Made by a program: the position numbers and the translations under genes
The notes under the pieces: generated by a model
The model's database searches: none
Told to the model about the DNA's origin: nothing
Seen by the model: the letters and a program-made list of their open reading frames with translations, nothing else
NCBI GenBank assembly: GCA_003971905.1
Contig: RSEE01000026.1
Span: 496,001 to 560,000, forward strand
DNA length: 64,000 nt
DNA from: Moniliella sp. 'wahieum'
Taxonomy: Eukaryota
Direction: 5' to 3'
In this document: positions 1,529 to 41,359 of the stretch, piece by piece
How the letters are laid out: each line of letters begins with the position of its first letter
Position numbering within the stretch: the stretch's first letter is position 1

Positions 1529-2913
1529 CGCGTACCCCCTTCCCGTTCTTTTTTTCTCCCTTTGCTCTCTCTTCCTATTTCCGTGCCCTACCGCTGTCAG
1601 ACCATCTTCGGCACGCACATCCTCTTCCTGCCAGCGGTTTGTTTGTTCTTGAATATGCAGTCGATATAAACCAATCTATCTGCGTGGTACTCATGATCGA
1701 CGAGGCGAGCCAACATCGGTGTGAGACTGATGAACGGTTGATAGGTGATGTACTCCCGTTTTCAACACTCCTCTGCTTCCATACCTCGACAATCTTGATG
1801 GACTCGTAAGCTGGCTAGTATACGGAACATGATTATGACTGTGGTATGGCATCTGACATTCCAGAGCAAGGGAGAGGTTGAATGGTAGCTAACATGCAGT
1901 GTAGACCCTACAACTGCTGCACCTGCGAATCCCGGCTTGGTCGTGTGGCGGGTACATCTGGGATGTGTATACGCGTCCCACGGGACAATTGACGAAGGCA
2001 CCATTGGATGGATTCGATTTCCCATCCGACCGATCGAGGCATTATTTCTTTTCCTGTGTCGATCAACATTGTCCCTGTTGATGGGTTTTCGTACCATTTC
2101 TCAGAGAGACTGAGGGCGGCAGATCCCCGTCGGTTGCCGTTGGTGGTTGATGTGGTGGAGAGACAGAGACAAAGGCGGCCTGGGGGCGCGGGACGTACGG
2201 CTGGTGGATCTTGATGCTCGATGATCTATATCGAGAGATTAATCTCTTGGTTTTGCGTTGACTTTTTTCTCCGACTTTTGGGGCCAATTTCCTTCGACTT
2301 TCCCCGAGACAGTCGGTGGCACGCGACACCCTTGCTACTAAACACCAATCCCACCTTGGAATCCCACATCTCCAATCTCAGATCTCAGAATTGCCCACAA
2401 GTCCAACATCCAGCAGCAGGCGCCTGCCTCGGGGTTCCGGAGCTGGACCCGTGACATGCCAGGGTGCGCTCTGGTGTGCTTGCTTTGCGCGCTTCCACGA
2501 TCCGGCAGGGGGCATTGTGTCGATCACTTCAATCACATGGCAATCATCGACATCATGCATCGTGCATCAGCCAGCGCGCTGCTCAGCCTCAGCGCTGAGC
2601 CTCAGCGCGTGATGCGTGAACGATAATGTCGATCATCGATCATCGATCATCGCCATCTCATTCACCCAATCACTCACTTGACAAATCAGGAAGGTCGATG
2701 AAAAGCGTGTCTGTCTGTCCCTCCATTAGGAGCTTCAAGCTTCAAGTGCTTCCTGGCTCCAGAACGCTCCAGCTCCCCAGCTCCTGAGCCTGTCGAGGGT
2801 CCCAACGCGCTGATGGCGCTGATGCGCTCCTGGCTTACTCGCTGCGCGTTTTGAGAGGCAGTGCGTGTGGGGGCGATTGAATCTATCCACATGCAATGGC
2901 TGCGTGTGGGTAT

Positions 2914-3204
2914 TGATGTGACCGGATCCCGATGCCAAGCGAGACAGCAATCAAGAACTGGGCCAATAGACGATAGGGATTGATTGCTGGTGAGCGATAG
3001 TAGAGAGTAGCGGAGGGAGGAGGAGGGAGGGAGTGGAAGAGGGAAAAACTAAGAGCTACGACTGCCGGGGCTGCTAGATAGGAGGCCAGTCAGCCAGCCA
3101 CATTTCCGCCCGAGCGGAACTAGCGGAGCTAGCCGCTGGATTGAAGTGGCTGGGAGCGCCAGAGTCCGGCTATGCCTTTGGCACACCGCACTAGTGTCCC
3201 AACA
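2914..3204 (-). mobile_element. Probable solo LTR (291 bp)
   Basis: Termini TGATG...CAACA, flanked on both sides by GTAT (2910-2913, 3205-3208). The minus strand has GCCTCCTATCTAG, like GCCTCCTATATAG in the 4219/5353 LTRs, followed by a pyrimidine-rich tract. Confidence 0.6.
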
Positions 3205-3717
3205 GTATTCAGCGCCAGCCACAGCACACCAAGCACGAGACTAAAGCTAGTAAAGGTGCGGCCTGGTGTGGCAGGGTCCGGATCCACAGGGCTTCATTGA
3301 ATATTGACGCGCTGACGCGCTGAGCGCTCGCTGAGCGTCACGGTGACGTGCCGGCGCGAGTGATTACAATCGACGCCCCCCCCCTTTTCCTTGCCACAGC
3401 TTTTGCCCCTCTTGCAGCTTTGACACATTCGCGTATATCGCTGCGGGAATTACTTACGGGTGCATGGGATAATTGATGTAAATCCAAGTTGGTAAGCATT
3501 AATCGATAATCATTCGTCGCAAGGGAATGCCCTGCCTAAGCCAAGCTAGTCGCCCTATAGGTCTTCGATCAATGACGCTAGCGCGGCGCGCGTGAACCGT
3601 GAACTGAATAATGCACTGTGGTGTTTCGGCGTTCAAGTTGAACACGTTGAACGTGCCATTTCAACGTTCCCGCGTTGACGTTTAACATTTAAGGCTCTCA
3701 GATCTTGAGAGAGGTGT

Positions 3718-18513: not shown

Positions 18514-19220
18514 GGCACAATCGAATCGATGCGATGCGACCCGGCGTGCTGGACCGTTCTGGATTATATCTTCTTTCGACTTGCAATGTCCCCAAGCCAC
18601 CCTGCCCTTTTCCAGTTGCTCCAGTAGACCTCTCTGCTTCCTCCGCCCCCGTGCGCCCTGGATGATGGATAACACCGCATTGGCCAACCAGCTCGCTCTG
18701 GCCAAGGCGGGGCAGGATGGTTTGTTTCTTGCCGAGCTAAAATTGCGTTTGAACCTGGACTAGCTGGACTGCCGCTCTCGGTTGTCGCTGCCTGGATTTG
18801 TCGGTAGTACGGTGTGTAGTCACTAGTCACTAGCTTCACTAGTCAAAGGTTGAAGGACGCAGGACGTAGGGAAAGGGTAGCTTGAGGGAACTGGAGGAGG
18901 CAAGTTGGGACCAAGCCTGGACTAGCGCTGCTTACCGCCAGCGCCCCTAGTGCATGTGTCGAGCGTGTTAGTGTCGATGGGAGGGTGCACGGCGCGCGAA
19001 CCCACAAGCTTGGCGGCTGTGGTGTTGCTTGCTGCTGTGGGGCAAATTCAGTTGCGCAGGTATCATGCATCAAACATCATGCATCGTACATCATGATCGA
19101 TCAGCAACTCCCTCACTTGAATTGAACGCTGGGTCCCATCTTGGCCGTCTCTACCATCGCACCCGTCTTCTGCTGTGAGTTGGTCAACACTACCTGGCTC
19201 GGGAGGTCAGCTGACGAGAG

Positions 19221-20620
19221 ATGAGGTCGTCATTGGAGCTGGACTACCAAGGGCAGCTGCCTTCGCTGCGCTTGTACACCCAGCTGGCACTGGTCTACTC
19301 CCTTCCCCCGGCCGGCGTCGAGGCAGGCCAGGTGGAGCAGATCGTGCGCGCCGGGCTTGTGCGCCTGGCTCATTTCTTGCCTTGGACGACAGGCGCAGTT
19401 GAAGTGCGTGGTGGCACCTCCACCCGCTCAGGAACCTACTTTTTGTCGTGGGATGACGCCCAGCCAGTCGAGCAGCGCATCCAGTTGGTTCTGCGGGACC
19501 GGAGAGGGGAACAGGTCGGCTCGGGTCTCACCCCGCTCCCCGAGCACTTGGTTTGTCCGTATCCTACGTTCCTGCCTGCCGGCGCGCCGGAGTATGCGCT
19601 CGTGACCCAGATCACCATCCTCGACCATACCCTGGTCCTTACCACCCTCACTTCCCATGCTACTGCGGATCTTATGGGCCAGGCGAGTCTCTTGCGTTGG
19701 CTCGATCGGTGCTGTCGCAACGCGCCCCTCACCACAGAAGACATGGCAGTGGGGATGCAAAAACGGGAGGAGGTCGTACCTATTTTCCCGTCTACCTGGC
19801 GTCCTGGACCCGAGATGGACTTCCCCTTGCCTCCTGCCGACATGGGCGGGGAGAAGCCCGAGCCCGAGCCTGAGCCCAGACACAGGAGGAGCGGAGCTGG
19901 GTCGTGTTTCGTTTTTCTGCGCCCCATTTGGCCCGGATCAAACGCGAAGCTCATCTTGCCCTTGCGGAGGATCAGTGGGTTTCGACTGACGATGTGCTGA
20001 CAGCAGCCGTGTGGGGTGCATTGACACGCATTCGTCTTCAAGCTGCTCCTTTGGCCTCGCATACTTCTCCTGTCCTCCTTTCCCGCGCCGTGGACATGCG
20101 CAGCGCATTCCATGTCGCTTCGTCGTACCCGGGATTGCTCGAGCACCTCCCCCTCCACGTTCTGCCAGCCGCCGAACTTGTCTCTGCTCCCTTGGGACGT
20201 CTGGCCTGGCACCTGCGCCAGCGTCTGGCCGACAAGCCCACCCTCGTGGCCCAGACGCGCGGCTGGGCGACGCTCATCCACCGTACCGCTCACAAGGACA
20301 CGGTGAACCTGCTGGGCCCACTCGATACCCAGCGGGGAGACATTATGGTTTCCTCCTGGGCCAAGGCAGATGTGTGGGGGCTACGGATGGGCTTGGACGG
20401 ACTGGGGATAGGACCTGCGAGGGCAGTGTGGCGGCCCACCTTCCCCGCCGTGCGGGGACTGGTGTACTTTCTCCCCAAGCACCCGGATGGGCAGGTGGAC
20501 GTGATGCTTTGTTTGACCCAGCAGGAATCGGAGGCGCTGGCGATGGATCCGGTGTGGGTGGGGGCCCAGAGGCTAAGCACTGACGCTCCGCTTGAGCCTC
20601 GTGCCCCATCACTTGCTTAG
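19221..20620 (+). CDS. BAHD-type acyltransferase, trichothecene 3-O-acetyltransferase (TRI101/AYT1)-like
   Basis: LDYQGQLPSLRLYTQL, HxxxD motif HATADLMGQ, RAVDMR, DIMVSSWAK, AVWRPTFPAVRGLVYFLPKHPDG. One frameshift near 19880; the exact start is uncertain. Confidence 0.85.
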
Positions 20621-21182: not shown

Positions 21183-22577
21183 ATGTCGACCACCAACCCT
21201 AGCGGGCAGGACGCTGACAGCAACATCCAGGTATGCCCCTCCCCTTGCTGCCCTCGCTCTGCCTTGCGTCTCGTTCGCTGACCCCCTTCGTCCCTCAGAT
21301 TTGGAAGATCAAGAAGCTGGTCAAGAGCCTGGACAATGCTCGTGGCGCCGGTACCTCTATGATCAGTCTTATTCTCCCGCCCAAGTCCCAGATCAGCCAG
21401 GCGACCAACATGCTCACCGGTGAGTATGGCACAGCGTCCAACATCAAGTCGCGTGTCAACCGCCTCTCGGTGCTCAGTGCCATCACCTCGACCCAACAGC
21501 GTCTCAAGCTGTACAGCAAGGTGCCCCCAACGGCCTCATCGTCTACTGTGGCACGATTCTTACCGACGAAGGCAAGGAGAAGAAGGTCAACTTTAGCTTT
21601 GAGCCTTTCAAGCCCATCAACACTTCCCTCTATCTCTGCGACAACAAGTTCCACACCGAAGCGCTGTCGGAACTGCTCGAGTCGGACGCTGTGTTTGGGT
21701 TTATCATCATGGACGGCAACGGTTCCCTATACGGCACGGTGTCTGGAAACACCCGTACCGTTCTTCACAAGTTCTCTGTCGACTTGCCCAAGAAGCACGG
21801 GCGTGGTGGTCAGTCCGCCGTCCGTTTCTCCCGTCTGCGTGAAGAGGCGCGGCACAACTACGTTCGCAAAGTCGCCGAGTTGGCCACCCAACACTTTATC
21901 ACTGACAATAAGTGCAATGTTGCCGGTCTCGTCTTGGCTGGTTCGGCCGACTTTAAGACGGTCCTTGCTCAGTCTGATCTCTTCGACCCCCGTCTCAGCG
22001 CCAAGCTCATCCGCACCGTCGACGTGTCGTACGGAGGCGAGAACGGGTTCAACCAGGCGATCGAGGAGGCGTCCGAGTCGCTGCAGAACGTCAAGTTTGT
22101 CCAGGAGAAAAAGTTGATCCAAAAGTACTTTGACGAGATCAGCCTCGAGACGGGCAAGTACTGCTTTGGAATCGACGATACTTTCAAGGCGCTCGAGTTG
22201 GGTGCAGTCGAGACGCTCATTGTGTGGGAAAACTTGGAGATCACGCGGTACGAACTCAAAGACTCCGAGGGCCACACGGTCGTGCTCATGCTCAACAAGG
22301 AGCAGAGAAGGACCGGTCGCGGTTCATTGACCCACTCACCGGCGCCGACTTGGAGCAGGTAGATGAACCCATGCCGTTGCTCGAATGGCTCGCTGAACAC
22401 TACAAAGACTTTGGTACCAACCTCGAGTTTGTCACGGACCGTTCCACCGAAGGCAACCAATTCGTCCGCGGCTTTGGTGGCATTGGTGGCCTGCTGCGGT
22501 ACAAGGTGGCGTTCGAGGATTTGGCCATGTACGAGGACGAAGACGAGGAGTTTATGACGGACGACTCGGACGACTGA
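21183..22577 (+). CDS. SUP45: Eukaryotic peptide chain release factor 1
   Basis: [55 protein letters not shown]. Intron at ~21232-21298; 1-nt deletions near 21528 and 22305. Confidence 0.98.
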
Positions 22578-23240: not shown

Positions 23241-24274
23241 ATGGCGCGCAATGAGGAGAAGGCACAGTCGATGCTCTATCGCTTTCGCGAGGCGCAAGCG
23301 GCCGAGATGGGCATCAACCTCCGCAAGCAAGTTCGTCGTCCACGCATGCCCAGCAGCGTCAAGAACATCAAGGCGGCCGAAAAGTGGCGTGGGCAAGTGG
23401 TAGCTGAGATTAGTCGCAAGGTGGCTCGGATTCAAGATTTGGTCTGACCGACTTTGAGGTGCGCGACTTGAACGACGAAATCAACAAGCTCATGAGCGAA
23501 AAGGGTCGGTGGGAACAACAAATTACCAGTTTGGGTGGACCACGGTGGAGTCGGACTCAGTTCGTCACGGACGACACTGGGTCAGAGGTGCCAGGCACAC
23601 GAGGGTACAAGTATTTTGGCAGAGCTAAGGATCTGCCGGGTGTCAAGGAACTGCTTGCCAAGCAGGCTGAAACCGCGGAGGAACGGCAAGACAAGCAGTA
23701 TACCCATTACCGTCAGTACTACCACCAAACGCCGGTCTACTATGGGTTGGAGGACGATCGCGATCCCTCACTCTTGGCCAACGAACAGGCACAAGAAAAG
23801 GACGATTGGAAGTCCCACGTCGGATTGGTTCTCGTCGAGTTGGGGTACGACCCAGAGGAGGTAGAAGGATGGTATACTAATGGTCACCCCGACCCTTTCC
23901 CCATGCCTCGACGCGAGGCTCACGTTGTCCCCTCCGACGCATCTGCCCCTTCTCGGTCACAAAAGGATAAGAGCAAAAGTAAGAGCAAGGGCAAGGGCAA
24001 GAGCAAGGACAAGAAGAAGGATGAAACACAGCAAGATGAGTCCATGGAGGTGGACGATGCAGAGGCGGCCAATGCGTTCAAAGCCGAAGTGGCCGATTAC
24101 TTGTTTGCTATCCCTGCTGAGCAATTACAGCCGCCGCAGCTACCGTCCAAGGAGGATACGGACAAGTGGCTCCTCCAAGCCCACAAGGAGACGCTTCGGG
24201 CAGAATGTGAGTCCCTCTTCTTTTGCTTGATTGTTCGGGCGAGACTGACCTGTTGCGTGGCAGATTTGCAATGA
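23241..24274 (+). CDS. ISY1: Pre-mRNA splicing factor Isy1 (NineTeen complex)
   Basis: MARNEEKAQSMLYRFR, AEKWRGQV, RDLNDEINKL, GYKYFGRAKDLPGVKEL. Frameshift near 23438; short terminal intron at ~24208-24263. Confidence 0.95.
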
Positions 24275-25035: not shown

Positions 25036-25189
25036 TGTTAATGCGAGGACAAAAGGCCTACGGAAAGAAGACAGAGGGAGGTGATGGATCTATTCCAAGA
25101 GAGGAGCCCGTTAGGGGCAGAACATAGAGGAGAGTCGGATAGAACAGCGCGATGCGTGATGCGTGATCAGCTGCATGATGGCGCTGACA
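25036..25189 (-). repeat. 3' LTR of the copia element (154 bp)
   Basis: TGTTAATGCG...GCGCTGACA on +; differs from 30276..30431 only by one A and one 3-nt indel in my reading. Confidence 0.97.
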
Positions 25190-25200
25190 GCCCCACCACG
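25190..25200 (-). other. Polypurine tract of the copia element
   Basis: Minus strand CGTGGTGGGGC directly abuts the TG of the 3' LTR. Confidence 0.75.
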
Positions 25201-25255
25201 ACTCGACGCTAGGATCCGACGAGATTGGAAGAGTGACAAATCAAGAGCCAGCTGG

Positions 25256-28200
25256 CTAGAAGGAATCTGAGCCGAAAATGGGCTTGATGCGGGAAGTCTC
25301 CTCAGCCCCACCAGGATCCGGCGTGAGCGTGAGGTAGCGACCTACACTGGAGCGTTGAACCGTATACGGTAGGAGCTTGGTAAAATCATTCGCGGGGTTC
25401 TCGGTTCCAAGAACCTTGTGCCACAAAATGCGCCCCGAATCGACATGCTCGCGGAACCAATGGTTGCGAATGTCCATATGACGAAGGCGTCCAATGAAAC
25501 CAGGGCGAGAGATAATTGACAGGGCAACAGCCGAGTCGCTATAGAGATCCACCGGACAGTTGGAAGGTACTAGTTGAAGCTCGACCATGAGGTTACGAAT
25601 GCGGAGAGCGTCGCGGGCGCCCTCACTAATAGCCATCATCTCAGCTTCAGCGGTCGACATTGCCGTAGTGGTCTGCTGGGCGCTGCGCCAGTGCACTAGG
25701 GCGCCAAAAACAAACACAGCGACCCCTGTTACCGACTTGCGTGTGACCTTGTCGCCGCCCCAATCGCTATCGGTAAATACGGCAATAGGAGGTGCCGTTC
25801 GATTGATCCTGAGACGCAGAGACCAATCCAATGTACCACGGAGGTAGCGCAGGACATGTTGTGCGGCGCTGCGGTGTGCAGCAGAGGGATCCTTGTTCCA
25901 ACGACTGAGAAGATGTACGACAAATGACAGGTCGGGCCGGCAGGTCTGCGCGGCCCAGCTGAGGCTCTGCACAATCGACATATAGCGCTTATGCTCGGCG
26001 ACAGTGGCAGGAGCTTCGTCTGGTGGACGTGGCGGGAGAGGTGTATCAGGATTGATAGGCAAACGAACAGGGTTGCACTCGAGCATGTCGGTGCGGGCGA
26101 GTAAAGCTAACAGAAATGCACGCTGGTCGCAGTCAAAACCATCAGGGCGAGTAACATAGTGCACACCCAGCATCTTACTGAGAGGACCCTTGTCGCCAAT
26201 CTTGATGTTGAGACCGAGTTCGTCCATGAATGCGTCAAAAGCAGCTTGGGACGGGGCCATGGCCATTCCGTCATCACAGTATATTGCGAGCATGATGGTC
26301 GTATTCGCTCGTTTGCGTATCCATACGTCCTGTTCTGTTACCGTCGAGCGGAAACCAATATCTCGTAGCTTGCTGGCGAGGTGGCGGTGCCACGCAGCGC
26401 CGGAGGCTGCAAGGCCATAGAGGGACTTCTTGAGTCGCCAAACGTTTGCTTTGTCGGTGAGAAAACGATCGGGAGGCTTAACGTATACCTCATAGGGAAT
26501 GGGTGCATGGAGATATGCACTCTTGCAGTCAAAATAATATGCCTGGAGGCCTTGCGCTTTACCTCCCACGGCTACGGTGCGAAAAGACTGATGCTGCGCC
26601 ACTCGAGAATGTGAGGGCCTTGGGCAACTCACTTGTATCCTCCTGGTTTCCTTGAACCACAATACGGGCTTTCCGTTTGAGGAACATATTCCTGGGGTGA
26701 CGCCAACACTGTAGACGGTGCGGGCACCCAAGATCTTCGTTCCGGCCGGAGGGCGTGGCACTTCTTCAAAGGCATCCATGGATCTGAGCCCGTCAAGCTC
26801 AATGTGTTCGGCCTGGCGCCACTGGGGCCACTCAGAGGTGGCCATTGCTTCACGCTCGGTCCGAGGGGCAAGGGGCACACCGTCAGCAGTGGTGCCGACA
26901 GTCGGGGGAGGGATGGCGGAAACGGCGTTGCCGGCGGGGAATGGCTTTCTTTTTCGGGCTTGGTGTAAGGGATGCGGTGGCAGGATCAGGGGAAGAAAAA
27001 CATAGTAGGGGGGATTGGGTGGGACAAAGGGGGATGACGCGCGGTGCGCGCATGGCCCGTTGGGCTCCAATCGGGATCAAGCTCGGCTGGCGGCTCATCC
27101 GTCAAGGGAGGCGCATGCGCATCCTTGGGTTGATAGAAATCAGGGGGCGACGCGCCCGAGCCGGATTGCGACGGGGGGCAGCTTCAGCCCCACCAGGCGT
27201 GGAAACTTCAGCCCCACCAGGTGTGGAAACTTCAGCCCCACCAGATGTGGAAACTTCAGCCCCACCAGGTGTATCCGGACGGTCGCGAAGCCCATCCGGT
27301 GGCGTACCCGGCAACGATTGGGCCTGGCGTATCGCCAGCCCGGGGTTTGTGGGATCCCACATGACGTCGGTGCACCACGCCCTGTACGAGCTGTGGCCGT
27401 CTTCTGTGATAAACTCAAATTCGTATCCCTTGGAGCGCGAGCGGATCGAATCCGACTAGCATGCCAGGGCGGGCGCGGCGCGGCGCGGTGGCCGCGCTCG
27501 GGACCTAACAAAGTACACCAGCCGGCCGCACCCAGGGTGCCCCAAAATAAGAGCTGCGTGGGAGGGGGCGGTCGTGATAGCGTTCAAATGGTGAGGGGGC
27601 GCCCAATGCGGCCGACACACTAACGTTGGCATACAAAGCGCCGCGACAGCGGCGTCGGCCCAGTACTGAGACGGTGCGCGGGCGCCGGCGAGGAGGACGC
27701 GGGTACGCTCCTGTATAGTGCGAGCGGCGCGTCGGCGTGGCCATTCTGTGGGAGGTGTAGGGGGTGGTGGTGGTGTGCTGGATCGGTGCATGACCGGCAG
27801 CAGTGAGGAGGTGCGGGACACGGGAAAACTCAGTACCGCCATCAGTGTGGAGACGGAAAAGACTGGCGCCCGTGGCGGGCGAGGAGGCGGCGCTCCTCGA
27901 GGAGAATAAGTTGGCTAGTGCCATTGCAGCGTCGCTCTTGCGCACCAGCGGAATGGCCAGAGATAGCCGGTGCAGTCGTCGACTACGACAAGTAAATTGC
28001 GCTCACCCTTCAGCCCCGTCGGCCAATCTGTCACTAGATCGGCATGCAAGTGCGCCAGTGGGGCAGCTGCACGTGCCGTGTGGCTCTCAGGGAACGGTGC
28101 GTCGGGTGCCCCGCCCCGCGCGCACGCCTGACAAACGCAGGCCGCGTCGGCCTCGGTGCATGGGCCTGGTGGAAGTGATGCGTTGCGCAACTGGCCCCGT

Positions 28201-30162
28201 GGCCGTGAGGCGGGGAAGCTGGCGCCAACCAACATGACCATGGCGGGCATGAGCAGCCAGTACCGGGTATCGGCCACGGCGCACGGCGTGGTGGGTGAAT
28301 GGGAGGTTGGGGACGTCGCAGTGGTAATCAACCACATAGCCATTAGCGATACGGTCGTAGCGAGCAACAATTGCGGGATCGCTATGGATACAGCGCCTTG
28401 GCGGTGTGCAAGGAACTCTACTCGATGACCAGCGGCATTGCCTGCGGTACAGAGGAGTAAGTCATGGTCAACTGGGGGACAAGCAAGCAGTACAAGTCAG
28501 GATGCATTCAGTTTGGACTGTGGAAGCGGGAGTCGAACCCGCTTCACCCCACAGCCTGTCACCGCAAGCTTCCGGACGCGCCAGCCAATCAACCCACCCA
28601 GTCGCAGGCTCGAGGAAAATGAAACCCTCGGGCGAGCGGACCATGCTCGGCGTCGCGCCGCTGTCAACTACCAGCTTGTGGAGCGCAGACGCAGTGGTGG
28701 GTGGTGGCAACCCCTGTGACAGGGCTGGAGGCGGGAAAGAAACGGGGGCTAGGCCTTGCGCGTTCGCGGTAGGGCTAGTTGGCTGTGGGAATGCCGGAGC
28801 TGGTAAAACCAGAGGTGAGGGGTAGTACGTCGGCATATAGCCGGGCGAGTACATCGGTGGCGGAGGGGTTCCTCCTGCCTGGGCGTAGCGACTAACTGCT
28901 GTGGCCGAATGGGAAGTATTGGAGTTATTCGAGCTGCTCGACATCGGCATGTTCTTCAACTCCGGATGCAGTGACCAGCATTGGGCCTCTGCGTGTCTGC
29001 CATTGGGGTGAAGACGGCAGGTACCATTGCGCTCTGCGCGCCCTCCTTTGCCCTTGTGCGAGGAAACAGCCTTGGTGACGAGCACTGTGTCCTCGATGTT
29101 CAAGAACTGCAGCGCTTGGCTCCGGGTCTTGCCCTGGAGCTGTTGCTCCTTCACGCGATTCGGCTCAGGGCAGCTATTGGCAAGAACGCTCCAGGCACGA
29201 ACGCTGAGCGGGAGTCCAATCATTTCACCCATACCCACGATCCGCTCGATGCGGGCAAGGAACTTCCGCGCCGTCTCATGCGCCGCAGGCTTAAGTGTGT
29301 CCAGGCGGGAACTGACATCACTCTCAAGTTTGACCTGGGTGGGACGATTGCGCTCGCACATCTTGCGGTACAGGCCTGAGGCCGAACCGCAGGCAACATG
29401 ACTCTGCGTGGTCGAGTCACATTTGGTCAAAAGGACATGCTCGAGCCGCCTGTCGATCAGCTCTTCCTCAGGGGAAGAGGGGCCGTTGACGACTAGGTTC
29501 AGGAACTGGTATGCCGAGAGCTGGTTGCGCGTATCATAGTCATAATCAAGCCAGTGCGTCGTTCCGAGTTCCCAGGAGGGTAAGCTGTTTCCTTTAGCCA
29601 GCGCCCTAATCATCTCCTCCTCCACAGAACGTGTCTGATGAGAAGGGATTTCCAGAGGTGGGAAAGTGTCAACACTGCTGGGGCTGTGGGCAGATGTTCG
29701 AACTGGGGGAAACCAATTGGGAATCAGCGCCGCGGTACCTTGAATGCGGTACTTGCGGGCAAAGTAAGCAAATTCGTGCATGAATGCGGGGTCGTGAATC
29801 GCATCTTGTGCCTGTTCCGTAGACCACTCGGGGTGTAAATCTTGAAGATGCAACAGGAACATGAGCTCATGGTGGGTTAGGTTGGTTTTCGGGGAGTGAT
29901 TTCCTTCGACAGAGGGGGGGGTGCCATCGTGGGCAATTTGGGCGTCTTCACCGTCCAGACGCTCGGGGGCGGCGGGGGTGGCGTGGGGAACTGCAGGCTC
30001 CTCTTGGGTAGCCTCGACACGAGGAATGGAAACTGCGGGCTCCTCATGGGTAGCTTCGACAGGGAGAATGGCGTCGGCAGACATGCTTTCGGCGCGCGGG
30101 TTACGCTTCTTCTTGGAAAGGGGTGGAAAAGCAGTATCGGCTCCGGAACGGAGACCAGGCAT
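25256..30162 (-). CDS. Copia gag-pol polyprotein (frameshifted in this assembly)
   Basis: Gag with knuckle CRLHPNGRHAEAQC; protease LVVDSGAT; integrase AHARHGH, LHADL, VVVDDCTGY, LHTDGGTEF; RT FDCKSAYL, LKKSLYGL, IYCDD; RNase H FTDSDWGGD, STAEAE, RHMDIR, NPANDFTK. Confidence 0.93.
27182..27272. repeat. ~4 x 24-bp tandem repeat CTTCAGCCCCACCAGGYGTGGAAA in the IN-RT linker
   Basis: Read directly; encodes TPGGAEVS repeats on the minus strand. Confidence 0.95.
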
Positions 30163-30263
30163 TCAGCCGTGTGGGGTGGGGGTGGGGTAGGGAAAAAAAT
30201 ATAAGTAGGGTTCAGGCGGGCAGACGAGAGAGGTGTAGTCTCCGCCTACTCAGAGGATAGTGT

Positions 30264-30275
30264 GGGCTCATAACC
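30264..30275 (-). other. Primer binding site GGTTATGAGCCC (half-tRNA-iMet, Ty5/copia type)
   Basis: Immediately follows the CA of the 5' LTR on the minus strand. It is complementary to the anticodon arm of initiator tRNA-Met rather than to a CCA end. Confidence 0.9.
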
Positions 30276-30431
30276 TGTTAATGCGAGGACAAAGGCCTAC
30301 GGAAAGAAGAAGACAGAGGGAGGTGATGGATCTATTCCAAGAGAGGAGCCCGTTAGGGGCAGAACATAGAGGAGAGTCGGATAGAACAGCGCGATGCGTG
30401 ATGCGTGATCAGCTGCATGATGGCGCTGACA
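30276..30431 (-). repeat. 5' LTR of the copia element (156 bp)
   Basis: Near-identical to 25036..25189. Confidence 0.97.
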
Positions 30432-30686
30432 AATGTCCTTTTCGACGAGCGCGAGACTGGACATGAGTCTGGCAGGGTCGGCAATCGATGGAGGAGAGGT
30501 AACGAGAGCGTTGGCAGTATCGAAAACTATGTTGACCACAGCTATGGCCTTCTTGTCGCCCACGACAACGGCAGTTGGATCAGGTACAGTAGAGAGCAGG
30601 TTCTGAGCTAATTCTTTGAAGCTACTGCAGGGGCGGGGGCAGCCGTGGGGGGCATAATAGGCGGTGAGGATGGCGCGCACAGACAT
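30432..30686 (-). pseudogene. ARC1/AIMP1-like pseudogene, 5' fragment (start of the GST-like domain)
   Basis: MSVRAILTAYY...LMSSLALVEKDI reads straight into EATVYVS on the far side of the copia once the element and one TSD copy are removed. Confidence 0.65.
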
Positions 30687-31032
30687 GGACGGTGGTGGTG
30701 GTAGTGGAGAGAGGTAGGAAGTGGTGGAGAGCAGGCCAAATCGACAGCGGCGAGGCTTCTGTGGGGAAAACTGCTAGAAAGCACTGCACTGCTTGTTGGC
30801 TATGGGAGAACAAGATAGCATCAGTGGCTATGGCAAACAAGTTGTATCTCTTCAAAGGCTAGGCACTAAGTCACAAAGCCACAAGAGCCACGGGCCTCGA
30901 AATTCAATTGATTGGCAGGGAAGTTTGATGCGCTTGGTAAACTTAAGGAACTTGGTGGGGAGCTTCCGCAAGCTCATGGCATGATGGATTCATACAGGGG
31001 AAAAAGAAGAAATGGACAGGATGTGTGGGCTG

Positions 31033-34000
31033 TTACTTGCCCGTCAGCAGGTAGTCAAGCGCTCGCAGAGACCGCAGTAGCACCGCCTGCGCACTCGCTG
31101 GCGAAGCAAGCGTAGCAAGCGCAGGCGACTGCAACTTGTTGTCTAGCCCATCTTGCGAGGTGTCGCCAGCTTCGACGCCTTGCATCGCCTCAGGCCCTCC
31201 GGCAGAGACCGGACCTGGCAAAGAGGCCGGCGCGGGTCCCGTCGGTGCCGTGGCCGGCGTCTCGCCGGCATCTTGTTCAACCGCGACCGGTTTGGGCGGC
31301 AACACTGCAAGTAGCGCGTCCAAATCCGACATGAGAGTCTTGGACGCTTCAGTCGCCGAGCGCACAAACGCATCCCGAATCACTTCCCGTGCTCCGGCCA
31401 CATGTGCCAGATTCGACGCCACCGCCAGAGTCGATTGGAAACCCCGAGCCGAGATAGGCGTCGCGAGTGGACGCACCACCGCTGCCAGACGCTCGGGCGG
31501 GATATGTGGAGTCAAAGCTGTAGGACCCTCACTCGTCCCCTCCTTCCACCCCAGGGGGAGCCTCGGTCGCCATGGTTTCGTCTCCTTCGTCCCCAGTAGC
31601 TCCTTCCGTGGGAGCAGCCGCAGGGTGCGCCACTCTCAGCAGCTCCTTCCGGTAGAGCGGCAGCCGAGGTGGCAGGGGCATCACTGGCACCCTGTTCGGG
31701 CTGCGCCGAAGGATTCTGAGTAGCTGAGGGGCCTGCGGTGGGTACAGACGGCCCACTTGCGCTGGCTGAAGCGACGGCAGAGTCTGCGATAGGAGGACGC
31801 TCTGCAGCGGGAGTGGCAACAGCTTGCTTGGCAAGTGGCTTGGTGATCAGGTGCAAAGCGTGGATCAGGCTGTCAAGCAGAGTGTTGTGCTCCGCAAATA
31901 CGGGCTGGTCAAGGAGAGCAAGTAGAAGCCCAACAGGAGGTTCTGCCGACGCCTTCTCTTTTTCTTTCTCCTTCTCCTTGCCCTTGCCCTTTTTGGACGA
32001 CCTGACTTCCTCCTTGAGGAACCACTCGCTCACGGCCGGGTTAACGTCGACAAGATAAGTGATTGCCGCAATGCAACGCAGGGCCATGAGGAACGGGGCC
32101 TTCTCTCCCTGAATGCTAATCGGGGAACCCGCCGACTGGTAAAGAGCGGGCCCACGCTTGGCACCCTTGCTGGGCGTCCCATGTGCTTGGTGGATGCGAC
32201 AGCTGATTGCGGCGTAAGACCGATCAACTGCCGCGGGTGTGCTGGTCCCTTCGGTCAAAATGGTAAGCAGCAGACGCAGCACATCGGTGCGAGTCTTTGC
32301 GTTCTCCGAAACGGAAGCCAGAACCCGATGGAGGCCTGAGGCCGCGGGATCCAGGTCAGGGAAGAAGAGGATCCGAACCAGCGTCAGGACACCAGCACGG
32401 TCTAGCAGTTGAATCGCGTCCCGGCGTGAGTCTTTGTCGGCAGCAGGGGCTGCGACAGCCGGAGTCGTCGAAGCAGCGGGAACGGCCGGGTTGGCAGGTA
32501 CACCCGGCTGAGAAGCACTCGCCTCCGTCGTTGGCCGAGCTTCATGGACCGCACTCTGCTCTGCTTGGCGCTCTTGCTCCTCTTGCTCGCGTTGCTGCTG
32601 CCGACGAGCACGATTGGCTGCCATGAGCTCGCTCTGTAGTACCTCCACACGGATCTCGGGTGGCAAGGCAGCGAGGAACTCAGGCTCGATTGCCGTCACG
32701 CCTTGGTCGCGACTCATCGTCTCAGCATGACGTTCGCGCAGGTGCTGTTCCACAATCTCCTCCCGCATAGCGTCTGGGAGGGCCAGCAGGAATTCGGGAT
32801 CCATTCCGGTACCCGTAATATCCACCACCTGGCTACCGATCGTGATCGTTTGCCGCTCCCCCTCTTCCTCTTCCTCTTCATCCTCGCCCTCACCGGCATT
32901 TCCGGCCCTCCCTAGGTACTCATGATCGGAGGGTACCCCATCCGAAAAGGGTGAGTTTGCCCGGTGCGGGGGCAGGCGATCCGCCATTTCCGTGTCGGAG
33001 GCTTGCGCCGGCGGCTGGTTTGCTTCTGGTGCCTGGATGCGCTCATGATCTCCACTCTCCTCCTGCTTCCGACGATGCGCTTCTTCATCCTCTTGGAGCT
33101 TACGCTGAAGCTGAGCAGCTCGTTCGGCCTCCTTTTCCTTCTGCTTCTTCTGAGAGTCCCAGTAGGCAGGAAGCAGAACCGCTTGCAGTTCGTGTCGGAA
33201 AAACGATGCGTGCTCCAGCTTGTTGACAGAGCGTGCATGGGCGAGGGAAGCATCTTGTAACCAACGGTTCGACGTGCTCATGGGCTTGAAGGTTTGGAGT
33301 AGTGATACTGGATCCGCAGCTGCAGCTTTATCCGCATCGGTTCATTCGGTCGACCGCGATTGGGGCCGGACGCGCCGTTGGTTTCCTCAAACCTGAGCGG
33401 GAACGGGCCGTGTCGTCGCTCCGCGTCAACCCCTGAGCACGCTCGAGTATCGTCTCTAGAAGATGCATGGTCCTATTGCCCATCATATCGAATGACAAGG
33501 CGCTGAGGTCCGTGCCCGAATGGTGCAGGCCGCCATGGAGACGACGCCGCCGACCGGGGAGACGGCTGGCCAGGGCAGAACTTCCGTCGGGCACGGCCGA
33601 CTGGTCCACCAAAAGTGGGTGCGACGCCGCCTCGTCTATCCCGTTCCGGCGCCCGGACCCAGTGACAAGACGAGACCGCCAGCCTTCCGGTTCGTGACCC
33701 CACAGGCTTCCATGTCTCCCACGCGCCGGGCTGTCCGAATGGTTGACCCACGCCCAATTGGCACCAAACAGATCCAGTGTGTTCGATGACGGGTTGTAGC
33801 CATCCTCGAGCGAGAGGTCGCCAAGGCCGGCAGCATCGTACCCATCATTGGAGGACCCCTCGTCCTCATCGATCACGTCCATACCGTCTTCCCCTTCACT
33901 AAAGACAGAACGAAGTTCCGATGGCGCCCACACCTCGTCAATCTCGAGCGTCGGAACCAGAGGGTCGCTGCCACTCGTTCCATCGTGCTCTAGGACAATA

Positions 34001-37000
34001 TCCAGTTCGCCATTGTCCGAGTCGCCATCGCTATCATTGTCCTGAAAGCACTCTGGGCGTCAGTATTCATAGTGCAGAGGCGAGGGGAAGCTGGAAAAAA
34101 GGGACATACCTCATCCGTCCATTCGGCCTCAAGCATGTCGCTGTGATCATGATCGTCATCATCGTCGTCATCGTCCTCGTCCTCGTCTTCCGAAGACGAA
34201 TCGTCATCCACCGAAGACATGTCCTCCAGGTCAATGTCGTCATCGTCAATGGTATCCTCACTGTCATCCGACTCAGAGCTGTTCAGATGGGGTCAGTATG
34301 AATGCAACATCAGTGCGAAGCGCAAAAAGAGGAGGCAAGACGTACGTCATATCGCTGTTGGAGTGGTCATGATCATACTCCTCCATCTCAATGTCCTCTT
34401 CATCCTCGCCGCTCTCGCCATCGCCGACATCGTCATCGTAGTTGCCCGACTCGAGGTCGCCAGTGTGGATGCCCAACGACGAATTGCGGTAGAAATCGGG
34501 GTGTCTCGCGACGGGAGCCACGGCCATGCTCCATGTCCTCCATCGAAGAGGACGTGCTTTCATCGTCGGAAGAAAGTTCGATCGGCACATCTTCGCGCGA
34601 ATCTCTTCTCTGCCCGGCCCATGCGGATGGCAACCTTGGTAAAAAGTCGAGCGGCTTGAGAACGCTGGTCAGAATCGATTTGGCCGGCGAAACGGACAAA
34701 TCAATGTCGGTGATGGTATTAGTCAAGACAAGGACAAAGTTCTTCTCCAACATCAACTGGCCATGTGAAGGCTTAGGTCCTCATTTTGACGCAGTAAAGA
34801 GCTCTGGTTGGGCTTGACCGTCAGCAAACGGAAGCACAGGTCGGACAGCACCAGGATCTTGCCACCCTTGGATGCCAGTGGCTCGGTCGAAGTTGTCACG
34901 TCGCGAATGCTCTTGCTCAGACCGTCAAGGACGGCCTTGCGCACCGAAATGACGTCTGCACTCAGATCTTGAAGCGAAACGTTGCTTGCCGTATCCGACG
35001 TCAGAGCCACAATGACCGACATGAGCCAATTGGTAAGCGCCTTGCACTTTCTCCAGTCCTTGTCGCTATACGCTCCGAGCGCAACGAGCTCATGGAACAG
35101 AGTCGAGACAGTGGTCCCACGAAGCTTAGCGGGGGTTGTAGAGGGCGTGGCAGGCGCAGCTGGGGCAGCAGGCTGGGTGCGCTTGCGCGTGTAGTTCATC
35201 AGACTCAATTTGCAGCAGTCGTACGAAGACAAGAGCTCGGCTAAAATTTGGAGGATGAAGCCATTGTAATAAAGCGACTGGTCCGCTTGGCTTTGCTCTT
35301 TTGCGGAGGTAGGCTGGGTTGCTTCAAGACGGGGTTCGTATTGACTCCATCACCGCTCGACGGAGCAGCTGCACCAGCGTCGGGCTCAGAGGGAGGCGGG
35401 ACACTCGCCTTGTCCTTCCCAGTTTGGGATTCGCCCGAGGACGCCTCAACCGATTCCTTCGTCTCTTGCTCGGCCGTCTCGCTTGCCACGACAGATGATG
35501 ACACGGAAGGTCCCATGGTGAGCTCCGAAATGAGGAAGTGGATCAGATGATCCGACACCTCCGTGGTCTGAGGGAGCTTGTGGATCAGCTTCTCGTCTCC
35601 CACCACTACTGGTTTCGGGCACGTCGAAAACGGGTGGTTTGGGCGCAGTAGGAAGGGACGTTCCAGATGGCCCGGCTGCCCCTACGGGAGTTTGAGGCAG
35701 AGCAGGAGCCACGGCAGGCCCCTCAGTGTTCGACTCGGTTCCCTCCTTTTGTCCTCGGACTCACGATCATCAATCAGCCGAACGCGGGGGGCGGTGCCGG
35801 TGCGATTGAAATCGATGAGCTCAAGATGGTTCTTGGCGACACCAAAGAACGTGTTCGGGTCCCGCCACACGGCCGAGCTCACTTGACCGAGTAAGTTGGG
35901 GATCACAACTTGGCTGCGGGTCGAGTGGACCGCCGAGCGCAGCATTTGGAACATGAGCTGTTGCAGCACTTCAGGCTGCTCAATCACATGCCGTAAAATG
36001 GTGACCAAATACGACTGGCAGAGCGGCACGATCGACTCGGGAACACCCTTCTTGAAAGGCCGAACAAGAACGACAAGCTCATCGTCCCCTTGACCCACTT
36101 TGCCCGCTAGAAGGGGTCGCCGGGTAAGGATGACCAGAAGGCGGTACGTGGCCAAAAGAGTTTCCGTGCTCCATGCGTCAGGCACTTCCTCCCGTAAGAC
36201 GGCAAAGGCCATTTGAAGATAAACGTCTCAAATTGGCCTAGGCGATTATCTGGATCGACCCGCGGTCGAGACGGGGGTGGGGTGCCTGCTTGCCACTCGG
36301 ATTCGAGGTAGGGAGGCGTCGGCTCGATTTCTCACTCCAGCCAAAAATTTCGCTCGCGATCAAAAAGATGTGAGGAGTGAACTCGCTCACCCACTTCTTG
36401 CCAGTTGACCCAACCGCTGCAAAGTTTGGATGATGGTAACGGCCGTGTCAATGTCGATCACCTGCCGCAGGCCCTCCGAGTTGTGCACAATGGCCAAGAA
36501 GTGAAGATAGACCCGCATCTTGCCCAGCAACGCATCACGCTCGTTTGTCTTTCCTTCCATATCCAACCTCTCCACCTCGGCTGGGACGAACGAATGAAGT
36601 CGTTAGCGTGGCGAATGGGGGTGAGCTTGTCGGAAACGAGATGGACAGCGTCGCGTGCCTCAAACACAAAGGTTCGTGCGTTTCCGCAAGTTCAAGAATA
36701 AGAGCGACGACGGTAGAGCTAATCTCCTTTGAATCGAGTGCAGTTCATCCGAAAGAACTTGCTTAGAAACCGTGCCTTCCGATCCCGGTTGCCACAGGGA
36801 TGAGGAGGGGGAGCTTGCGAGCGTTCCGGAGCAGACGAAGAAGGCTCTGAAGACGATCCTGCCTCCGTCGATGGACAGCGGGGTCGGTGCCGTGACAGGA
36901 GGGGTGGGAGTGGATTCAGCCCCTTGTTGGTTCAACAGCCGCAGTAGCCCCGCCGCGAGTCCTCTCCGCTTCCAAACGCCGACTGGACGGAGCCGGAAGT

Positions 37001-40000
37001 GAAGCCCAGGTCGGTGAGGACTACGTCGCCGCTAGACTGCACAGGGGGGAAGGCGCCCGAAGAGCGAGCAGTGCTGCCGTCGCGAGCGAGTGGACTCAGA
37101 GGGTTGCTCATGCCCGGAAGGGTCATGTTAAGCAAGGGAAGAGGTAGAGAACTGCCATTCCCACTGCCCGAGCCGGACTCGGGGCTAGCATCATCCTTGT
37201 TGAGAGTAGCGAGGATGATCTTGACCAAACTGCGAATGATGACGAGCGGCAAAGTGGGCAACCAACTCTTACGCCAGATGGTCTGGACCGCCATGATGAC
37301 CTGGAGGCGAATGATGTCAACCACGCACTCTTGGTTGGAGGAAGGGTACTGCTGGTTCAGAGCAGAGAGCTGGACCAGGTCGTTCGTGATGCGGTACGTG
37401 ACCAGGTTGTGCATCAGCCGGAGGCAGACGTGCAAGCCGCCGCACGCTTGGCTCAGGTGCTGGCAACATCCTCGTTATCGGGCACCGTCGTCTCCCCCGA
37501 TGAGTGTCCAAAATCCGGTCCATCTGGGCCAGCATCAAATGGAACTGGCTCAACAATGCGCTAACACCGCCTCGGTGGAAGAACTCGTACAGCAGCAAAC
37601 AGCTCACGGTAACCCGCGACCCCTTCCGCTCGTAAAGAAGATTGTCGATCCAATCCACCACGACAGTGGTGTAGGCCATATCGTTGGGCAAGTTGCCGCT
37701 CTTGCGCGATTCGAGCGCTTTGAACATCGTGTCGGCAATGGTCCCCAATGTGGTGAACGTGTTTTTGCGAGTCGTGGGTCATTCGCCGGCTTGGACAGGA
37801 GGCGGACCACCTCGCGGTGCATGGCCTTGAGCGACTGAGTCATATGCGACATTGTACCGCACTACCTTGACGTTCTGCCGGACCGCCTCAGACACCTCGC
37901 AACTCTTGTCCGCCTGACCTGGCGGGTCTGCTGCTTCCAACAACGCGGATGAGCTCGAAGGCGCATTGGACGACCACTAGAGGAAGATGATCCACAATAT
38001 CTTGCACAGGGCCGGATACCTTGCTGGTGGCCGTGTTGCCTTCCACCCCCGCCTCCCGAGGGGGCACAGCTGCTTTGAGCAACATGTTCATCCAGAGTGA
38101 ATGCCGCAGCAACGTGCCGAGCTTGCGCATGAAGGGCCCTTCGCCCAGGCCACGGTTGGTATTGAGGGCAGGGAAAAGGGCCGAAACGGACGCGAATATG
38201 AATGGTAGCTGAACGGCTGATACAGTTCACCAAGAACATAGAGCTTGGTATTGAGGTAGACCAAGTTGCGGAAGACACCATTGGTTTTTGTCCAGGTTGC
38301 TTCGTCAGAGGGGGCGAAGAAGTCGAGCGGCGAAAAGGGCAGTTCCTGTCCGTTCGACGCCCAGGTTTTGTCGTCCCACAGCGCACTCGTTTGTTGCATG
38401 GACTCGGAAATTGAATCCATGAAGGCGTAAACGACCGAAATGGCCCTGGACTCCGTCATGAGCACCAGCAGGTTGGCAACTGAGTCTGCGGCGAAGGAAG
38501 AGAGGAAGTTGTATGGCAGTGCCGTGGCATCGTAGAACTTCAGCAGCTCTACCAACCCGCCCTTGGTGATGAAGGCATGACAATGCGAAGCGGTGGTAAA
38601 GAACCCTTCCATGAATCGGGCCGCGACGTCCATCTGCGCGATAACACCGTTGTAAATATTGGCATCGTCCTTCTTACCTTGCCGCTCGTCCTCTCCATCA
38701 AACAGGTCGGCCAAGGTAACAGAGGGGCGGGCGAGAGCGACTACTTTAGTGGCCTCGGTCTGGGGGACTTGCTCCAGATCAAAAATTTGCTTGGGCGGCT
38801 CGGGAAGGCCTGCTTGGCGACAGGCATCGTCAATCGAAGGATGCCGCTCCATACGGCGAGCGATGCTCTTAGCATTCTGTTGGTCGCGTTCAAAGCCGTA
38901 AAGATGCCCGAGATAACATCGCCCCGCGCCGACGGTTGGTGACGGACAAGCTCATCGATCGAGGTGCCAAACAAAATGGCATTGTCCATGTCCTCCAACA
39001 CCTCAATGTGCCGGTGGTCTAGAAGGAGACGCATGAGCTTGCGCGCCACCATGCAGCGGTTAAACAGGTCCAAACCAACCGGGTTGAGGCACATGGCCGA
39101 ACAGACGCTGGGCAGGGTGCTGATCAAATCGAAATTGGCTTCAATGTCGTCGGTAATCAGGTCAAAGAGCATCTCGGGAATCCGTTTCTCCTGCACCACC
39201 ACCAGACTCGTGGGCTCATTGTGCACTAAATGGCCCACCACGCCGATCGCAACAGCGAGGATTTGTGGGCCAAAAATGAGGCGGTGCGCCATGATTTGGA
39301 TGACAGAGTCTGGCAGAGACGTTTCAATCAAGTTGCGCAACTGATCCGTTCCCGCCGACGTGATCATGTTGCCAATGTACTTGAGGATGTTACGCAGCAG
39401 GGTTGCACTCGGTTGCGACAGGTACCCGTACAAGTTGTCAGCCGGCTTGGCCCACTCGCTCCGCACGGTCGTCAGCCGATCACCCTCGGGCTCGGGATGA
39501 GCAATGTCGTATTCCACCTCTGCTTTGATGCGTTCCACGTACACGTCGGGCCCACCCGCGTCACAGAATTGGGTAAAAGCCGGCGGTGAGGTGGAGAAGA
39601 TGAAACTGTCGATCAAGCCGAGAGCACGAGCGACGGATCTTTGGGCCAGGTGGACCCGCGAGCGACATTGTTGGACAATCTTGACCAAGAGAGGCATGAG
39701 GCCGCACCGACGATCATCGTCATGTGGCTTGCGTTGCGGCCATTTACGATTGCCCCCAGTAAGCCAAAGATGGAATCGGCGTAGGTGCCGAGAGAGGTAC
39801 CCGGATCACTCCAGGCATACGGAGGTGGAAGCAATGTAGCGTCGGGTGGGAGGAAGGGCAGGGCATCCATACTGCTAGTAAGCATGCGCAGATTCTGCAA
39901 CAGTGCACCATGATTGACTGACACGCCAATGGACGTAAAGACGTCGGAGGAGCGGGTACGGAACTTGGCCAATCCTTCCAGCGCATAAAACGCACTCGAC

Positions 40001-41359
40001 ACAATGTTTCGGTCAATCTTGTGTTCAGGCGACACGAGCGTACCAATCAAGCGAGCAATCTCCGGGGCCAACATGAAGAGCTCATTAAGCGCCGTATCCT
40101 CCAACACCACATGACCATACACTGCCAAAGCTAACAAGCGGCATGACATGAGTTTCTTGCGGGCAGAAGGGTCATAACCCGCGAGAACGGAGCGCACTCG
40201 TTGGAACAGCTCAAACTGGGATTCGGGTGGAATCTTGTACGCCTCAATTGCGTCGGTAACAACATCCATCAATGGGTTGCCCTGGGACGCCAGGTTGCGC
40301 AGCTCGATCACCGACGCCGTCTCCGGAGGGGGCGCCGATGGGCCGTGTGCCGATCCCACATTGGACCCAGACCCTGTTCCGGGTGCAAAGGAAACGTGGT
40401 GTGAATGGCTGCGGGCTGGACGAGGAGGGCGTGGGTGGGCAGGAGAAGAGGAAGAGGCCGCAGCCCGAACCGGTTCGCCCAGGTCGATGGACATTGACAG
40501 ATCGGGATCAATGGTAGGCGCTGTTGTTGTGAACTTGGTGTAGCTGGGGCCCGATGCGCCGGAGATTGGCGGTGGGCCGAGCGAGAGGGCTTGTCATGAG
40601 GCTCGGGTAGCTTGTCGGATGCGGGGCGTTGGATGGCAAGACGGACCGTGTCAAAGCCGGGTCCAGGCTCAAAGTTGTCACTAGCAAGGTCGACCAAAGT
40701 TAAGCCCGATCCCATCGGAGCCCATGTGGCACCAAGGGTGAGGAGGCGCTGAGGCACAGTACCCTGCTCAACCAGCTCCTGGGCACGAGAACCGCCTTTT
40801 GCAGAGTGCTGTTGGGCCAAGCGCTGAAGGAGCCGCAGCGTTTCTTCAAGCACATCCAAATCGTCGGTTACGAGTAAGCTGCGGAGATGCTGTAGCGGGA
40901 AGGAGAGAGTTAGAACCGTCCGACGGGGCAAGCAAACCTTGAGGGAGGCGAGAGAGAAAGTACGTACCTCATACGAGTTGTAGATCTTACGGTTGGTGCA
41001 GCTCTCTAGGAGAAGGCGGCTAAAACGAAGTATGGAGACAAGCAGGCGCTTGGTGTGCGGGGTGAACTGATGGTACTGCAAATCTGTCACACCGTACTGG
41101 GTCAGGGTGTGCTCGAGGATGGCATCGAAGCGGTTCAGCGTCTGGGTCCAGTGGTGAGCATCGCCGCGGGGCCAGGGCCAGTCGTAGACGCTGTCCAACA
41201 CGCCAGGAAGGTCCTCGTCCGGGGCCGCCTGGACACGCTCAATAATCGCGGCAATCTGGGGCAACTGCGAGGGAAAAAGAGGGTGAGTAGGGGGCACAAA
41301 GGGGCCAGGGGCACACGCACCGGAGGCCACAGACGCTTGGGTGGGCGTGTGATCTTCAT
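31033..41359 (-). CDS. TOM1: Tom1/HUWE1-family giant ARM-repeat protein (DUF908, DUF913, UBA-like, UBM repeats); no HECT domain found
   Basis: WPWPRGDAHHWTQTLNRFD, LLLESCTNRKIYNSY, LVHNEPTSL, SAMCLNPVG, DELVRHQP, UBA-like LTDLGF, DPEFLLALP and EPEFLAALP, RRDAIQLLDRAG. Ends AQAVLLRSLRALDYLLTGK-stop. Several introns and many indels. Confidence 0.92.

Follow-up and report, generated by a model that had tools for sequence, protein, structure and literature searches.

We analyzed a window of 64,000 nt from the genome of Moniliella sp. 'wahieum' (GCA_003971905.1, contig RSEE01000026.1, positions 496,001 to 560,000), in which a gene of the Tom1/HUWE1 family of giant ubiquitin ligases ends before the catalytic HECT domain; coordinates below are those of this window. 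An earlier reading, made from the letters alone (hereafter the sequence-only reading), had described a Tom1-type gene of about 10.3 kb closing in TAA at 31033-31035 and had offered as explanations a gene fission with the HECT module encoded elsewhere, a catalytically dead adaptor, or a recent rearrangement or misassembly. We found that the gene is an ordinary member of a two-gene form of Tom1/HUWE1 that is subphylum-wide in Ustilaginomycotina and apparently unremarked.

The scaffold gene and its end

The gene lies on the minus strand (31033-41359) and runs from an ATG at 41359-41357 to a TAA at 31035-31033, over 10,327 nt or about 3,400 codons when read through. It was delimited by tblastn of 56 relatives, and gene models for it are rough. 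The start codon (41357-41359), which opens the sequence MKITRPPKRL..., aligns with residue 1 of the orthologues. DUF908 (PF06012; 39883-41054, Pfam E 4.9e-18 and 2.8e-35 in two pieces of open reading frame, ORF), which marks the start of ARLD1, and DUF913 (PF06025; 38508-39628, E 5.2e-55 and 1.5e-08) are both present, as are two UBM repeats (DUF4414, PF14377; 32610-32813, E 1.4e-17, two stretches), GMDPEFLLALPDAMREE and IEPEFLAALPPEIRVE. These domains place the gene in the Tom1/HUWE1 family, and the start, the stop and the domains agree with the original description. The UBA-like segment also listed there fell below detection: no UBA was matched by Pfam at E<=0.01 in the window's ORF pieces, the segment can be made out by eye only, and a probable frameshift falls in the region near 36955. 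Orthologues of the window protein carry the domain as PF22562/PF00627.

The last part of the protein is the N-terminal portion of the ARLD4 solenoid (31036-32423), from RDAIQLLDRAGVL... to the protein end, delimited by orthologue alignment, by the yeast Tom1 boundaries given in the available part of 10.1101/2024.11.25.625210, and by mapping of the partner half onto the Protein Data Bank (PDB). A PDB search with the window's last ORF alone gave no match at E<=1, and the mapping was made through the partner half and an orthologue profile. The C-terminus reads ...LLRSLRALDYLLTGK followed by TAA, with ...AQAVLLRSLRALDYLLTGK as its final residues, and its terminal helix, LATLASPASAQAVLLRSLRALDYLLTGK (31036-31119), is, from alignments and a predicted fold, the putative docking surface for a HECT half. 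The stop codon (31033-31035), which by the ends of the orthologues lies at a conserved fission point, overlaps caaGTAACAgcc (caaGTAACA). Downstream of it lie a pyrimidine-rich tract containing TGTA and, after 347 nt, the ATG of another ORF; here the sequence-only reading, which had put that ATG about 350 bp on, described the sequence correctly.

We searched the whole window for the domain that should follow. Three fused Tom1 proteins gave no high-scoring segment pair (HSP) in the 64 kb beyond the LDY helix when used in tblastn, seven stand-alone HECT halves and one fused C-terminus reached no E better than 0.31, and for a hidden Markov model built from 24 HECT halves and run against the six-frame translation the best match had E 0.55 and scored negative. 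The claim that no HECT motifs lie downstream therefore holds for the entire window. With its stop at 31033, the polypeptide carries no C-terminal HECT with a catalytic cysteine and does not belong to the HECT E3 ligases (PF00632).

The reading frame of the gene is interrupted in several places, so that the supposed lack of obvious decay upstream was wrong in the letter. A -1 shift falls between IVGA and GLMPLL (39703-39709, at ~39706), where GCGGCC stands for the expected GCGGGCC in a conserved stretch (shift indicated by 37 homologues); a second -1 shift, between HMAK and LMLEKNF in another conserved stretch (34759-34765, at ~34762; 45 homologues), creates a TGA; and a +1 shift lies in the C run of the conserved ETPDFYRNSSLG (34495-34503, at ~34500; 8 homologues). 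Homology continues straight across these three shifts, and the remaining junctions are ambiguous. The only likely real introns are one of 56 nt (41320-41265, GTGCGT...CAG), where 56 extra nt separate collinear HSPs, and one inside the ARLD4 portion (~31633-31518), indicated by orthologue alignment. Models allowing splicing only (16-18 GT-AG introns, 2,814-2,931 aa) were rejected as over-spliced, with many poor donors and with conserved residues removed where homology shows plain +-1 shifts; a frameshift-tolerant model (~3,400 codons, 21 X, 2 introns) was likewise set aside since it overuses shifts, some of which merely skip stops. Elsewhere in the window, on the plus strand, the eRF1 gene (~21218-22359) has C5 where C6 is needed at ~21517-21521, which breaks its frame, and at that nucleotide the Pfam eRF1_1 profile resumes from position 71 in a different frame. 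Because this essential gene has the same kind of shift, we read the shifts in the scaffold gene as homopolymer errors, probably of the assembly. In an RNA run that shared 0.07 of the words (X1), two contigs of 197 and 151 nt fell inside the gene, far from the stop.

A conserved stop and separate HECT genes in Ustilaginomycotina

A first homology search returned three Malassezia-type proteins that end in ...LRCLRALDYLYMGK and are without PF00632. For a second search the query was the tail of one Malassezia-type protein, and 120 of 380 matches were listed. PF00632 was absent from 53 of the 120 listed, and all 32 named ones among these are Ustilaginomycotina: nine Malassezia species, Ustilago, Sporisorium, Pseudozyma, Thecaphora, Testicularia, Violaceomyces, Tilletia, Tilletiaria, Microstroma, Sympodiomycopsis, Parajaminaea, Exobasidium and Meira. 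The other 67 listed matches do contain PF00632, and the named ones are Agaricomycotina, Glomeromycotina or Mucoromycota, none of them Ustilaginomycotina. The lineage was looked up for four names, and the remaining names are placed within or outside Ustilaginomycotina as we take them to belong.

C-termini were inspected directly in 56 proteins of the listed matches, comprising the 53 without HECT and three, from Agaricomycotina, that end in it. Whether orthologues in related species stop at the same residue had been proposed as a check on fission, and 44 of the 53 HECT-less ones do, ending exactly 4 residues past LRxLRALDYx just as the window protein does. Two more stop 5-6 residues past this motif and seven carry low-complexity tails of 31-57 aa. 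The window protein, which ends a few residues past LRxLRALDYx and has no HECT, thus belongs to the scaffold-half orthogroup. The L, R, L, R and A of LRxLRA are invariant in 34 orthologues. Among the 56, the window protein is closest to P0183 of Tilletiaria anomala, with 42.5% identity across HSPs and 46% when aligned globally. This relative, the DUF913-domain protein of T. anomala UBC 951 (KDN52289.1 / XP_013245128.1, 3,365 aa), has the same end, ...LRSLRALDYLLTGK (LLTGK), and no HECT; it differs from the window gene in coming from another, distantly related species and in having a gene model without frame interruptions.

The low-complexity tails occur in Exobasidium/Meira-type scaffold halves (P0196, P0197 and P0200-P0204), where they may have survived from the ancestral linker or have arisen when the stop was later lost.

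The complementary half was sought with the post-linker part of a fused Ceratobasidium Tom1, limiting the search to short proteins. Among the matches listed were 24 named stand-alone Tom1-type HECT proteins of Ustilaginomycotina, 540-680 aa long, encoded on contigs of up to 5.45 Mb; because contigs reach this length, the HECT halves are not products of contig ends. They include UMAG_03442 of Ustilago (Mycosarcoma) maydis (571 aa; seen on 160 contigs) and a protein of M. sympodialis. UMAG_03442 and its kin in Malassezia, Sporisorium and Exobasidium, among others, consist of a leader, the last ARLD4 helices and HECT, and so differ from the window gene in representing the other subunit of the same ancestral gene. 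In each of the listed HECT halves, a methionine and a variable leader precede a conserved motif that begins at residues 31-176 (located by regular expression in 21 of the 24), and EDEAKLAKIYESFEFDPLW, which follows the leader, corresponds to the segment that lies in fused Tom1 past the variable linker of 20-40 aa behind the LDY helix. By this comparison, no structured sequence has gone missing at the break. All 24 HECT halves keep the catalytic Cys, and most of HECT is likewise invariant among them.

The two genes are not neighbors. In 8 of the 11 species for which both halves were listed they lie on contigs of differing size (Thecaphora, Testicularia, U. loliicola, Ps. flocculosa, Violaceomyces, M. 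yamatoensis, M. vespertilionis and M. caprae), and in Exobasidium, Meira and Parajaminaea they share a contig. The sequence-only reading had favored a fission with HECT encoded elsewhere, and this is supported by a stop common to most HECT-less orthologues together with stand-alone HECT genes in the same species, mostly on other contigs.

The Exobasidium locus tags are 003625 and 003636, and the Meira and Parajaminaea accessions are ~1,800-2,200 apart. In Exobasidium rhododendri (P0051/P0200) the halves are thus 11 locus tags apart on one contig of 5.45 Mb, while Ustilaginomycetes and Malassezia have them on separate contigs; this closeness may be left over from the original rearrangement. P0280 and P0282, two proteins whose labels give the fern Adiantum nelumboides as their source, fall in the 90%-identity clusters of the Meira miltonrushii scaffold and HECT halves, which suggests that Meira-like fungal DNA is present in the A. 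nelumboides assembly.

A maximum-likelihood tree was built from the last 490 residues. It groups the 18 HECT halves included into a single clade (100/100, one change), separate from 15 fused proteins, and they therefore stem from one ancient fission. Branching within the clade follows taxonomy, and its stem branch is no longer than that of Agaricomycotina. From the sequences compared, the fission is ancient and subphylum-wide, not peculiar to this genome. A recent rearrangement or misassembly at 31030-30690, as the sequence-only reading had also considered, does not fit a stop conserved across three fungal classes.

Position of the break in the ring and the relation of the two halves

Yeast Tom1 is solved in full length in four structures, and residues 38-544 of the M. 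caprae HECT half align to its residues 2761-3268 (E 1e-175). According to the available part of 10.1101/2024.11.25.625210, ARLD4 of yeast Tom1 spans aa 2456-2889 and the catalytic module 2890-3268, the ring closes through an ARLD1-ARLD4 interface, and Tom1/HUWE1, which is studied as a single giant chain, requires its closed ring for full activity. Because the HECT half begins within the ARLD4 interval, the break lies inside ARLD4, and by alignment some 130 residues at the end of this solenoid belong to the HECT protein. Saccharomyces cerevisiae Tom1 (3,268 aa; PDB 9EGK, 9MHP, 9ELD, 9DNS) and human HUWE1 (4,374 aa; 7JQ9, 7MWD) have the same order of DUF908, DUF913, UBA, UBM and ARLD4, and the profile of orthologous scaffold halves matches HUWE1 at E 4e-176 and Tom1 at E 4e-148. 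However, each of these is one chain, whereas the window chain ends within ARLD4 and the remaining ARLD4 helices and HECT belong to another gene.

We folded residues 2412-2756 of the M. caprae scaffold together with residues 40-544 of its HECT protein. The pair scored 0.66 (runs 0.68, 0.66 and 0.65), whereas the best of 3 controls scored 0.00, and so passed a mark that 51 of 78 solved complexes and 2 of 108 mismatched pairs attain; its runs agreed in at least 85% of contacts, with a partner pLDDT (predicted local distance difference test) of at least 81. The predicted interface joins scaffold residues 2668-2755, the last helices including LRCLRALDYL, to residues 44-97 of the HECT protein, its first helices, and in the model this is the stacking expected of consecutive repeats. 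Across 34 scaffold halves most interface columns do not vary, and the window protein shares the docking residues: of the 31 in the M. caprae scaffold, it has 22 identical and 24 similar.

We consider it probable that the window gene encodes the scaffold subunit of a two-gene Tom1/HUWE1 ubiquitin ligase. In an ancestor shared by at least three classes of Ustilaginomycotina, a single TOM1 gene would have broken in the variable linker past the LLRxLRALDY helix, inside ARLD4 and ~130 residues before the position of the yeast Tom1 HECT module. The upstream gene would have kept ARLD1-3, UBA, UBM and the first part of ARLD4, stopping at ...TG(K/R), and a second gene elsewhere would encode an intact HECT preceded by a methionine, a variable leader and the last ARLD4 helices. 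The two proteins are predicted to bind: the last helices of the scaffold would stack on the first helices of the HECT protein, and the ARLD4 so re-formed would rebuild the ring-shaped ligase non-covalently.

Alternatively, the fission may be real and the halves uncoupled, the scaffold serving as an adaptor that binds ubiquitin without catalysis, and the protein of 550-680 aa as a minimal HECT ligase that acts freely. The evidence for binding of the halves is a predicted fold, the long variable leaders of the HECT halves could carry targeting of their own, and the genes are unlinked in most species. However, the helices flanking the break are among the most conserved parts on both of its sides, in fused Tom1 they follow one another as repeats of a single domain, a half solenoid domain would expose its core, and exactly these helices are used in the predicted docking. 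We therefore regard uncoupled halves as unlikely, and the same conservation and predicted docking make the dead adaptor of the sequence-only reading a less likely outcome.

An account in terms of a local artefact or decay, by which the gene would be a pseudogene or would have been truncated by misassembly or by the neighboring retrotransposon, draws on the three or more +-1 shifts within conserved coding sequence and on a copia element lying 600 bp downstream. It is highly improbable, given that the gene stops at the same residue as 44 of 53 orthologues, that the retrotransposon has a clean 5-bp target duplication in another ORF and leaves the gene untouched, and that the shifts are at short homopolymers and of the same kind as in essential eRF1, as base-calling errors would be. 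Slightly less credible still is a joining of the parts at the RNA or translation level, through a missed cis-intron at AA/GTAACA, trans-splicing or read-through, with a protein that remains fused: the stop does overlap a GT, and a conserved K/R followed by a stop could mimic a conserved splice site, but no HECT exons lie within 31 kb downstream or 22 kb upstream, separate contigs carry the halves in 8 of 11 species, each HECT gene brings an ATG of its own and a leader of 30-175 codons, and read-through of the TAA meets a further stop after ~31 codons. A missed intron in particular is argued against because the halves are non-adjacent in relatives and the window is without HECT, and to our knowledge trans-splicing is not established in fungi.

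Several observations weigh against a two-subunit ligase as the product of the window gene. The HECT gene of this Moniliella genome is presumed from its relatives, and separate transcripts for the two halves are presumed from the separation of the genes in DNA. Moniliellomycetes, Peribolosporomycetes and Pucciniomycotina did not appear among the matches listed. The frame interruptions, three or more at conserved places, may be real decay. The docking was predicted for a Malassezia pair, not for the organism of the window, and without supplied alignments, and its pass may reflect likeness to the solved structures of fused Tom1 and HUWE1. In addition, short HECT-only models occur sporadically outside the clade (Cerrena, Mycena, Xylaria, Claviceps and Caulochytrium), so that a short HECT-only model is by itself weak evidence. 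Because relatives of those fungi have fused genes, we take the outside models to be fragmentary, and in these comparisons a consistent two-gene pattern appears only in Ustilaginomycotina.

Full-text literature searches found no paper on a Tom1/HUWE1 split in these fungi, and a term search of a 2026 review of HECT structures (PMC13196369) turned up nothing relevant on a split, a fission or two genes. Both gene sets are already in public databases. In the accessible part of Marin 2018 (PMC5913265), one TOM1 is counted in U. maydis and the split is not noted; the supplement, in the part available, contains alignments of the HECT domain, which would hide a split. In databases, HECT-less Malassezia orthologues bear names such as 'HECT-type E3 ubiquitin transferase', which are based on similarity only. 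The annotation can now be corrected for the many scaffold halves that are named HECT-type transferases and are without HECT, and for this window the 'missing' HECT domain is expected and not an error.

We suggest, tentatively and with less confidence than for the window gene itself, that in smuts, Malassezia, Exobasidium and their kin the HUWE1/Tom1 ring ligase might be a true two-subunit enzyme, stable since the origin of the clade, and that the cells may make, dose or exchange its catalytic subunit separately from the ring that binds substrate. The ancient two-gene form reveals a point at which the ring can be cut and selection nonetheless retains it. It also gives structural and biochemical studies smaller pieces that can be expressed separately, and it raises the question of whether assembly of the subunits regulates the ligase.

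Neighboring genes and the retrotransposon

The ORF whose ATG follows the scaffold gene (minus strand, 30432-30686) is cut by a retrotransposon: it runs into a long terminal repeat (LTR) at 30431. It had been called ARC1-like, an identity that we could not retain, as the ORF has no Pfam match. The inserted element (25036-30431, minus strand) is a Ty1/copia LTR retrotransposon with RVT_2, flanked by a 5-bp target duplication, AATGT. Its LTRs (25036-25189 and 30276-30431) are 154-156 nt long, have TG...CA ends and match at 153 of 157 aligned positions, and its ORFs comprise gag (28471-30162) and an RVT_2 pol (25259-27076). The element is a recent insertion into the ORF starting at 30686, ~600 bp downstream of the Tom1 stop and unrelated to it. 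Four tandem units of 24 nt occupy 27153-27272, between the gag and pol ORFs. Elsewhere in the window, both on the plus strand, are an Isy1-like splicing factor (PF06246, E 2e-47) at 23414-24271 and a trichothecene 3-O-acetyltransferase-like N-terminal domain (PF22664, E 1.6e-18) at 19215-19997.

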